NCBI GenBank assembly: GCA_964016885.1
Contig: OZ024766.1
Coordinates: 1,860,001-1,924,000, forward strand
Direction of reading: 5' to 3'
Source of the DNA: Eledone cirrhosa
Lineage: Eukaryota
DNA length: 64,000 nt
This document shows, piece after piece, positions 43,501 through 46,500 of the stretch. The number at the start of each line of letters is the position of its first letter. Positions within the stretch are counted from its first letter, which is position 1. The translations under genes and the position numbers were made by a program. Under the pieces are notes generated by a model that was not told the origin of the DNA, ran no database searches, and worked only from the letters and a program-made list of their open reading frames with translations.

Positions 43501-46500
43501 CATAAACAACCTTCGCCCTCCAGGACTCCTGGTAGATTATTTTAGACTTGTTTCAGGGAAAAAAGTACCGTCTTTGACGCCGGGAAACACGGTAGTTGTG
43601 CTTTCTTGAATGTGGCCTTATTATATTAGAAGAAACTTAATGTGGTCTTTCAACAGGAAGAGGTCCCCCACCCGAGCTAACCTATCTCAATAAAGCTATT
43701 TATACTACTTCTCTAAAGCCATGGTTAAAATTACGATCATAATCTTCTTTGTGGAGTTTTTAACAGTGTCTACTAACTGAACCACAACCCTCATCCACTT
43801 GTTCGGGGTCACATGACATCTCACATGATCCAACATTAACTGCCTCAGTCCTTCATCAGATAGTTCTGTATCTTCCTCAGCGCGACTCCCTTTAATATCT
43901 TGAGAGGTCCTTTATGTTTCACTTTAGTGGGTTCCCATAGTTAAAACAGACACACACACACACACATATATATATATATATATATATATATATATATATA
44001 TATATATATATATATATACCATATTTCCTGGTGCCGAAGATGCTTCGTTCTCGAAGAAAAAAAAAAAATAATAAACAACCTTCGCCCTCCGGGACGCATG
44101 GTAGATTTTTGAGGCTTGTTTTAGGAAAAGAGTAGCGTCTTCGAAACTGGGAAATACAGTGTGTATTAATGTGTCTGTATGTATAAATATATATAAATAT
44201 ATATATATATATTAAAGTTTAAGCAAAGAATCTCTGCTTTCACCCTTAACGGGATCTTCTGAAACTAACAAAGTCAATCTGTAAACGCAGAAGTGGATAT
44301 TTCAAAAAACGTTACGGTTCTTATATATTTGATATATATTTATCCTTATCGAGCCCTCTTTGGATTTTAGTCTTCAAATTTATTATTATTACTATATATA
44401 TATATATACAATTCAATATATTAATAAATGGAAACTCATCATCTTCGTTTAACGTCCATTTTCCACGCTAGCATGGGTTAGACATATTTATAAAACCATA
44501 ATTATTTTATTATATATATTTCAAGGGCAACCAAGCAAGATTCGCTGGACGGTTGCAAATTCACTATTTATAAAACAAATTTTGTATTTTATCTGATGAA
44601 AGCGCACCAAGATTTGCTTGGTTGCCCTTGAAATATATATAATAAAATAATTATGGTTTTATAAATATAGTTTCCATTTATTAATAGAGTGAATATTTAC
44701 TCCAGTAAACTGTTGAGTGCTCTATATCAGTTATAAACTTTTAAGTTTGTTGGAATCCCAACAAATTAAATATAACTTCTACATATGAAGTACCAGTCAC
44801 TCACTGGGGTTGATTTAATCACCCCCCCCCCTCCCTCCCTAAAATTGCTGGCCTTGTGCCTATAGTAGGAATTATTTGGCAGTATTGGTAGAGAGTCGGA
44901 CACTGTGCTTTGCAGCATAGAGTTCCGGCCCTTTATGTTCTGAGTTCAAATCCCTCCGAGGTTAACTTTGCCTTTCATCCTTACAGACCCGATAAAATAA
45001 AGTACCAGTCATGCACTGGGGTTGGTTTGATCGACCCCCCCCCCCCAAAAAAAAAAATATATTACTGGCCTTGTGCCTCTACTAGAAATTATTATTATTA
45101 TTAATTTTATTATTTTTTTTCTTGTTGTTTTTGCTTGTGTTAACATTCTCCTAATCTGTCTAACGAATTAGAATATGTTTAATTAAATAATTAATAATTT
45201 AAGGTTTGAGCATTTAACGAGCTTTGTGTTTGTTTACGATTGTTTTGTTTTTTTAATTATTAAATTTTTTTTTTTTTTTTTTTGCACCACTTAATAAAAT
45301 AACATTTTTTTTTTTTTAAATTTAAATTTAATTTTCATTTTTTAATTATTTAATATTTTAATTTAATTAAAATTTATTTTGGTTTGTTTCTTTCTCTCCT
45401 TCTTTTTCTGTTTCTCAGAAGCTTTTTTTGTTGTTGGTGTTTTAAAATTATTTTTCGTGTGTGTTTTTTTATTATCTCTCTCACTCTCTCTCTCTCTCTC
45501 TCTCTCTCTCTCTCTCTCTTAGTCGGGTGTTTGTTGTTGTTGTTTGTTTCTTTTTTTTTCTTTTCTTTTTTTTTTTTACATTTTGTTTTCTTTGATTGCT
45601 ATGTGTGGGGACAGGGGGCTGTGAACAATATATATATATATATGTGTGTATATATATATATATATATGTATATATATATGTATATATATGTATATATATT
45701 ATATATATATATATATATATATACATATGTTTATAAATATATACATGTATATATATATACATATTTATATATATATGTATATGTGTATATATATATATAT
45801 ATACATATTTATATATATATATGTATATGTGTATATATATATACATATTTATATATATATGTATATATATATATATATATACATATATATATATGTATAT
45901 GTGTATATATATATATATATACATATTTATATATATATATATATGTATATAGATATATATATGTATATATATAACCACACCCATTTTCAACTAATAAGTA
46001 TGTAAACCACAGCCACGCCCCCAACACCAGATATGTACCCTTAAAATCTACAAAGGACCAAGATCTGGGTAGTTACTGCAGTCAGATGAAGCAAGGACTA
46101 AAACCTGAGAATCTCTAACAGTTTTCCTTTTCAGAAAATATATCTTACACATATAGGGTTATGTAATCTTGATAACAACGAAGGCGCGAGAAACAGCTGT
46201 CGGTTGCTTCCCTTTGCTTTTGCTGAGACCAAATAAGTGACGTAGTCACTTACTTTGAAACTCACAGTGAATGTTCTTCAAAATGTTTTTAAATAACCAT
46301 ACAGTATATTATCAAATATACTATACATATATTCATATTATTTTATATATATATATATATATATATATATATCAAGTAAGTATGTTTTGAAACAGTGAGC
46401 GAGTTTGAAATTAGAAAATATATAGCTTTCACCGTATTTTTAACTAAAGGAATTTTAGCTTGATAACGGGGTTTAGAACCCTCAGATAAATGAAAAAAGA

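Follow-up and report, generated by a model that had tools for sequence, protein, structure and literature searches.

An inverted copy facing a hammerhead motif in a POGZ-like intron of Eledone cirrhosa: probable origin in a Penelope-like insertion

Why should a hammerhead motif be preceded, on the same strand of the same intron, by an antisense copy of its own 3′ half? This arrangement lies near 44.6 kb in the 64,000-nt stretch of Eledone cirrhosa DNA analysed here (the window, to which all positions refer). An earlier note had offered two answers: the inverted pseudo-LTR typical of Penelope insertions, or an inverted duplication that neutralizes an intronic ribozyme and yields double-stranded RNA open to editing. 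We consider it highly probable that the arm, which would mask the motif, is an ordinary inverted, truncated second copy from a Penelope-like (PLE) insertion, most likely produced in one retrotransposition event.

The hammerhead motif and its inverted arm

The exact reverse complementarity claimed for the inner part of the arm holds at 55 of 55 bases (44484-44538 against 44614-44668), and perfect pairing ends at both edges of these 55 bp. The coverage claimed for it is also correct: within the partner strand lie the 3′ strands of both stem I (44642-44649) and stem II, together with G12-A15.1 (44630-44633) and the predicted cleavage site at A44641. The arm extends further, through an outer portion interrupted by an insert (Table 1), to a total of 81 nt with two mismatches to the main copy (79/81 identical); both mismatches are confined to the outer 26 nt and leave the inner 55 bp perfect, a distribution with a chance probability of 0.10. 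The 47-nt insert at 44437-44483 has five further copies in the window (87-89% identity) and is without target duplication, and contigs diverge at either of its edges. The duplex contains 44 A-U pairs. Energy-based folding of 44400-44710 predicts one long hairpin (−116.3 kcal/mol, z −15.2), with 0 of 100 shuffles equally stable.

The motif itself has the core CUGANGA and GAAA with a NUH site between helices I and II, and this core is unvarying in 3/3 family copies. Stem I is formed by 44585-92 and 44642-49, the core starts at 44593, stem II occupies 44600-29 and G12 is 44630; helix III (44633-40) is an 8-nt perfect palindrome and the predicted cut falls after A44641. All three family copies have U before G12, and the G10.1-C11.1 pair is therefore absent. 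The motif had been called the best-formed, which is right insofar as it alone within its family has a fully Watson-Crick 8-bp stem I, but its predicted active fraction is not the highest in the window: 4e-4, compared with 1.4e-4 for the 7.9-kb copy, 4.4e-3 for the motif at 18431 and 2.9e-2 for a core variant at 37276, the latter two belonging to families other than that of the 44.6-kb copy. Minimal, of dimer type and without G10.1-C11.1, the motif is likely to be near-inactive alone, and in a predicted cofold of two motif copies the active form is not the minimum. The proposal that the duplex would outcompete the ribozyme fold agrees with prediction, by ~41 kcal/mol more than without the arm. 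The constrained probability of the active fold is 4e-4 without the arm and 4e-33 with it; these secondary-structure energies leave out tertiary contacts, and the active-fold probabilities are rough.

Rfam hammerhead families gave no match at E<=10 on 44450-44720 or on 44570-44665. Matches to Rfam miRNA precursors lay far under the gathering scores, and any long hairpin would give such matches. An exact 34-nt pattern had 0 matches in the metagenome contigs and viral contigs of two prokaryotic/viral collections.

Table 1. Features of the 44.6-kb locus, its host intron and its sister insertions.
Feature	Position	Strand	Basis or remark
Host intron of POGZ/ZNF280-like gene	34707..50771	+	Homologue-matched exon at 34.6 kb and predicted exon 50772-50941; ~16 kb
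(TA)8 microsatellite	44393..44408	.	Left outer end; sequence
Outer portion of inverted copy	44411..44436	-	Stops at the family's short end; 24/26 to the reverse complement of 44669-44694
47-nt terminal fragment of another abundant repeat	44437..44483	.	Splits the arm
Inner portion of inverted copy (the arm of the earlier note)	44484..44538	-	55/55 to the reverse complement of 44614-44668
22-nt junction filler between the head-to-head pieces, non-family	44539..44560	.	Longest other window match 9 nt
Main truncated element copy, pseudo-LTR-like remnant	44561..44786	+	Runs to the family's long end; 79-85% identity to two sister copies
Minimal type I hammerhead motif	44585..44649	+	Sequence scan and predicted folding
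~92-nt tail-like extension, on one end only	44695..44786	+	Comparison of the two ends
Sister insertion (26.9 kb)	26813..27052	+	Inverted long-end piece 26813-26887, ~36-nt filler, hammerhead-bearing short-end piece
Sister insertion (7.9 kb)	7869..8140	-	Hammerhead-bearing short-end piece 7869-7990 (minus), ~36-nt filler, inverted long-end piece 8027-8140

Layout of the family and evidence from contigs

The related copies at 7895 and 26950 had been described as lacking this arm. Neither indeed has one over its hammerhead, but each has an inverted piece of the same element upstream (8027-8129 and 26813-26887). Each of the window's three family copies consists of two truncated pieces set head-to-head with 22-36 nt of filler between them. 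One piece runs to a short boundary (corresponding to 44675-44694) and its partner to a long one (~44786), with a one-sided extension ~92 nt long in 3/3. In both sisters the hammerhead sits on the short-end piece, and the long-end piece halts at or before the short boundary. The 44.6-kb copy has its hammerhead on the long-end piece, and its short-end piece ran for 81 nt; this is why its two pieces overlap. An inverted piece long enough to overlap the ribozyme occurs in this copy only (n=3 family copies). Judged from sequence, the presence of an arm at 44.6 kb and its absence in the sisters is a difference in piece length inside one architecture.

The 26.9-kb copy is sense and intronic, with pieces that do not overlap and (TA)n at both sides; the 7.9-kb copy, on the minus strand, has the order (TA)n, inverted piece (8027-8140), filler, hammerhead piece to 7869. 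Overall, (TA)n stands at 4/6 outer ends of the three copies, and a target-site duplication is not readable. The (TA)8 beside the arm is the likely insertion target, and a bias towards (TA)n insertion is described in PLE clades (PMC8557442). The fillers at 44539-44560, 26888-26923 and 7991-8026 are mutually unrelated, have a G+C content above that of the element and are without a clear source in the window. Two other classifications of the family were rejected: a MITE, as the inverted pieces vary between copies and have zero overlap in the 26.9-kb copy, and a tandem retrozyme as described in PMC7229834, as the motifs are single and 17-19 kb apart, with no tandem unit at the 44.6-kb locus.

The contig comparison covered 4 of the 24 listed sequencing runs at 80% likeness; in run X1, 21,570 contigs were placed on the whole 566-nt stretch compared, which also holds other repeats. 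From that run, 89 contigs depart before 44561 with letters resembling the sequence upstream of the 7.9-kb hammerhead, and the summed depth over 44529-44566 is ~twenty-fold below that of its neighbours (depth is not a copy number); these two observations mark 44539-44560 as non-family. Among the contig pieces listed, four end at 44786 and three begin at 44695. At 44651, ~90% of the X1 family depth has A, and both the arm and the main copy share the rare letter T, implying that they were derived from one template. At 44687 and 44689, T makes up ~99% of the depth and is also the letter that the outer portion of the arm (44411-44436) has at both sites, where the main copy has G; the main copy thus likely changed after the duplication. 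No listed contig in any of the four runs spans the locus, and the junction is therefore without read confirmation.

Directly left of the arm, between two (TA)n tracts, lies a separate high-copy repeat (44213-44392). The points at which many X1 contigs connect its two halves vary (15 of the 62 joints are listed), as would be expected from internal deletions or from inversion junctions of variable position.

Head-to-head inverted remnants of other families are found at 60200-60561 (134/142), 24413-24587 (80/83) and 46410-46613 (96/98). The first belongs to an element at 60200-60606 whose arms lie over a hammerhead-like core (a CCGAAGA variant at 60422), with a one-sided extension of ~45 nt and (TA)n at both sides. 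The other two are near-perfect inverted repeats with 8-9-nt spacers, adjoining (TA)n; 24413-24587 has CTGATGA and GAAAC boxes on both strands and did not pass the full hammerhead scan. A third hammerhead-bearing family is represented at 33893, 37158-37359 and 49630: in the 37-kb copy the main piece and an inverted piece downstream of it overlap by ~15 nt, and the 49.6-kb copy is degenerate. Within the host intron, two copies of a SINE-like repeat form a perfect 101-bp inverted repeat (38223-38462), a likely further substrate for editing. Elsewhere, a 251-codon frame at 9541-10296 contains a cysteine motif that we take to recall Helitron proteins.

Origin of the arm

Based on this layout, we propose that the element endonuclease would cut a (TA)n/AT-rich site, and that both DNA ends would prime reverse transcription, which would begin at two internal positions of the RNA. 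Either copy would halt at a random distance, the truncated ends would then be joined by repair, and the overlap of the pieces across the hammerhead would be set only by the run length of each. Two substitutions in the main copy and the 47-nt insert in the arm are likely later changes. The hairpin in the pre-mRNA would be an ordinary ADAR substrate with no regulatory meaning. Two-ended priming followed by end joining is what we infer from published PLE work: the PLE protein studied in PMC11167929 acts on AT-rich DNA, where it cleaves both strands and extends them, with two internal start sites that delimit the tail, and the hammerhead does not cleave without protein. The typical PLE insertion is described as an inverted 5′-truncated copy beside an upstream pseudo-LTR, with a 30-40-bp tail at one end and microsatellite targets (PMC8557442); elsewhere the inverted pLTR is reported as the shorter one, head-to-head as the commonest arrangement, and self-priming on an antisense template is proposed (PMC3846280). 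Minimal type I hammerheads with palindromic helix III are mostly single and probably come from truncated PLEs, some metazoan ones occurring as opposite-strand pairs 100-700 bp apart, and for the single motif no detectable cleavage is reported, with little for dimers (PMC4209133). Penelope-like families are abundant in octopus genomes (PMC13282606, PMC8967140).

The pseudo-LTR suggested in the earlier note is thus supported by 3/3 family copies together with published PLE anatomy. The insertion reading draws on the head-to-head order in 3/3 copies, the short and long end in each, the shared rare letters, the non-family filler and the head-to-head inverted remnants of other families in the window. 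Against it stand an extension of ~92 nt versus the 30-40 nt described, the unreadable target-site duplication, the placing of both mismatches outside the perfect inner 55 bp, and the small number of whole family copies (n=3). Neither the ORF list nor a motif scan revealed an RT or GIY-YIG ORF within ~1 kb of the three remnants, so that PLE membership rests on architecture; the 44.6-kb element appears to resemble a PLE remnant on every testable architectural feature, which does not prove membership.

The host is a POGZ/ZNF280-like gene. One exon matches cuttlefish POGZ at 95% identity, as well as POGZ/ZNF280-like proteins of other molluscs, and the exon at 34.6 kb is matched by other molluscan homologues. 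The alignment of cuttlefish POGZ (P0001) is collinear along the + strand between 13123 and 54148, and prediction adds an exon of compatible phase at 50772-50941; together these place the hammerhead in an intron in sense orientation, with the closest located exons 9.8 and 6.1 kb away. At 28128-28135, a POGZ-like exon shifts frame relative to all seven homologues tested, owing either to an assembly error or to a true frameshift. A 1,569-codon open frame at 53582-58291 is mostly low-complexity, with a peptide repeat (14 letters), and its alignment to cuttlefish POGZ is limited to the first 186 residues.

A strand-symmetric scan detected seven hammerhead motifs in the window (+ strand: 18431, 26956, 33893, 37276, 44593 and 60422; − strand: 7947), against a background of 0-1 hits per window in six shuffles. 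Aligned exons bracket five of the + motifs; the sixth, 60422, likely belongs to an intron further along the gene. Inside the region that the POGZ-like gene probably spans, 6/6 motifs are thus on the sense strand and 0 antisense (sign test 0.03, post hoc and for one gene; 0.06 for the five between aligned exons), and the only minus-strand motif, 7947, is upstream of the first coding exon. An arm covering the core is present in two of the six sense motifs (44593; 60422, with arms of 134/142) and absent from four, of which 18431, 26956 and 33893 are intronic with an unchanged core.

Other origins of the arm can be weighed against these data. AT-rich self-complementary sequence promotes fold-back repair, and the arm could have been added later and neutrally, when a copy already in place was duplicated locally by fold-back or template switching. 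The 79/81 identity of arm and main copy, compared with differences of 15-21% among family copies, would fit such an event. Nevertheless, the arm stops at the family's short boundary beside (TA)n, an endpoint shared with the 26.9-kb copy, the host flank is not duplicated, and both sisters have a comparable inverted piece and filler; we regard this origin as unlikely. An assembly artefact in the form of a fold-back chimera is hardly credible. It would agree with the lack of a listed contig across the locus in four runs, though Logan contigs in repeats often fail in this way; at the two sites where arm and main copy disagree, however, it is the arm that has the family letter, the arm contains an insert of its own and the filler is unique, and both sisters follow the same plan.

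A different proposition is that the arm was selected as a lock, sense intronic insertions with an inverted piece over the hammerhead being less harmful and thus preferentially fixed or kept. It is consistent with the sense intronic position, with an arm predicted to silence the fold and with the perfect inner 55 bp, as well as with a covering arm in 2/6 sense motifs versus 0/1 upstream of the first coding exon and with the reported depletion of retrozymes from introns in Xenopus (10.64898/2026.07.22.740005). Harmful sense ribozymes would be expected to be few and mostly locked, and the POGZ-like gene shows neither: four of six sense motifs are without a covering arm, three of these with unchanged cores, and zero antisense intragenic motifs pass the scan, the opposite of what harmful sense ribozymes predict. 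Moreover, the monomer, lacking G10.1-C11.1, is predicted to be almost unfolded, and the exons are distant. The idea that the duplication was kept to neutralize an intronic ribozyme is accordingly not borne out, and we consider such selection very unlikely. Cleavage within introns can be tolerated through exon tethering, which we do not count as evidence. In the openly accessible literature searched, we found no account of an antisense lock of a PLE hammerhead. An extended version, which we hold to be more doubtful still, is that cephalopod introns are full of sense Penelope hammerheads that can cut pre-mRNA with protein help or as dimers, the inverted piece being a safety catch, with overlaps filtered in and ADAR setting its tightness; if this were true, the 6-to-0 sense bias in the POGZ-like gene would be its first sign.

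The other suggestion of the earlier note, that the double-stranded RNA is edited to modulate the ribozyme, would make ADAR a switch: by opening the duplex, it would release the ribozyme for cleavage of the POGZ-like pre-mRNA. Octopus hyper-editing is among the highest and a lizard Penelope is heavily edited (PMC5625713), and the duplex has its 44 A-U pairs. In our proxy, which assumes equal editing and forbids edited arm adenosines to pair, and so gives an upper bound on melting, 50% arm editing yields a predicted probability of the active fold of ~5e-15 and 75% one of ~1e-5; about 75% of arm adenosines must thus be edited before the fold returns. At that level, the core adenosines A13, A14 and A15.1, which lie inside the duplex, would all escape with a probability of only 0.02. 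Editing strong enough to open the duplex would therefore also strike the catalytic GAAA and make a poor switch, an explanation to which we give almost no credence. In the contigs, A>G rows occur in all runs with no clear excess in the tallies (A>G places: X1 7, X4 8, X5 7). The A>G at 44661, which sits within the family's own extended stem, is seen in 28 X4 contigs (27% of depth) versus 18 X1 contigs (under 0.1%); it is not counted as editing because the signal extends across the family and X4 comes from another sample and is a run of unknown kind.

Under the favoured insertion origin, the 44.6-kb feature is one further remnant of a high-copy repeat and leaves views of the ribozyme and of gene regulation unchanged. 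The three copies, each with a short end, a long end and filler, nonetheless offer a clean genomic footprint for testing whether both cut ends prime Penelope inversions, and insertions that overlap themselves could plausibly supply the near-perfect double-stranded RNA that underlies heavy octopus editing. Were the lock true, the geometry of a transposon's integration would neutralize its own ribozyme.

Comparison with known systems

The locus shares with canonical PLE insertions (as described in PMC8557442 and PMC3846280) a head-to-head inverted truncated copy at the 5′ side, a one-ended extension, a hammerhead inside the repeat and a likely microsatellite target. It differs in that no ORF remains, the extension is ~92 rather than 30-40, each junction has 22-36 nt of non-family filler instead of an overlap or palindrome, and no target duplication is readable. 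Like the metazoan PLE minimal type I hammerheads of PMC4209133, the motif has type I topology, an intact core, a long helix II and a short palindromic helix III suited to dimers, and occurs as dispersed single copies. Unlike them, it has U at 11.1 in all three copies and hence no G10.1-C11.1 pair, a highly conserved pair outside the descriptor; helix I is longer (8 bp) and the helix III insert is 6 nt, not 0-4.

Non-LTR retrozymes (PMC7229834; 10.64898/2026.07.22.740005) are similarly non-coding, AT-rich, endowed with a type I hammerhead and probably PLE-related, whereas the present locus has no head-to-tail tandem units with two hammerheads, and the canonical loop 1-loop 2 architecture is not seen. 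Finally, compared with Poseidon of Anolis (PAc) as characterized in vitro (PMC11167929), the putative start sites here are separated by ~92 nt, and the hammerhead of the 44.6-kb copy is not overlapped by an ORF start. The two preferred 3′ boundaries and the AT-rich targets nonetheless fit the two RT start sites of PAc and its cleavage and extension of both strands.
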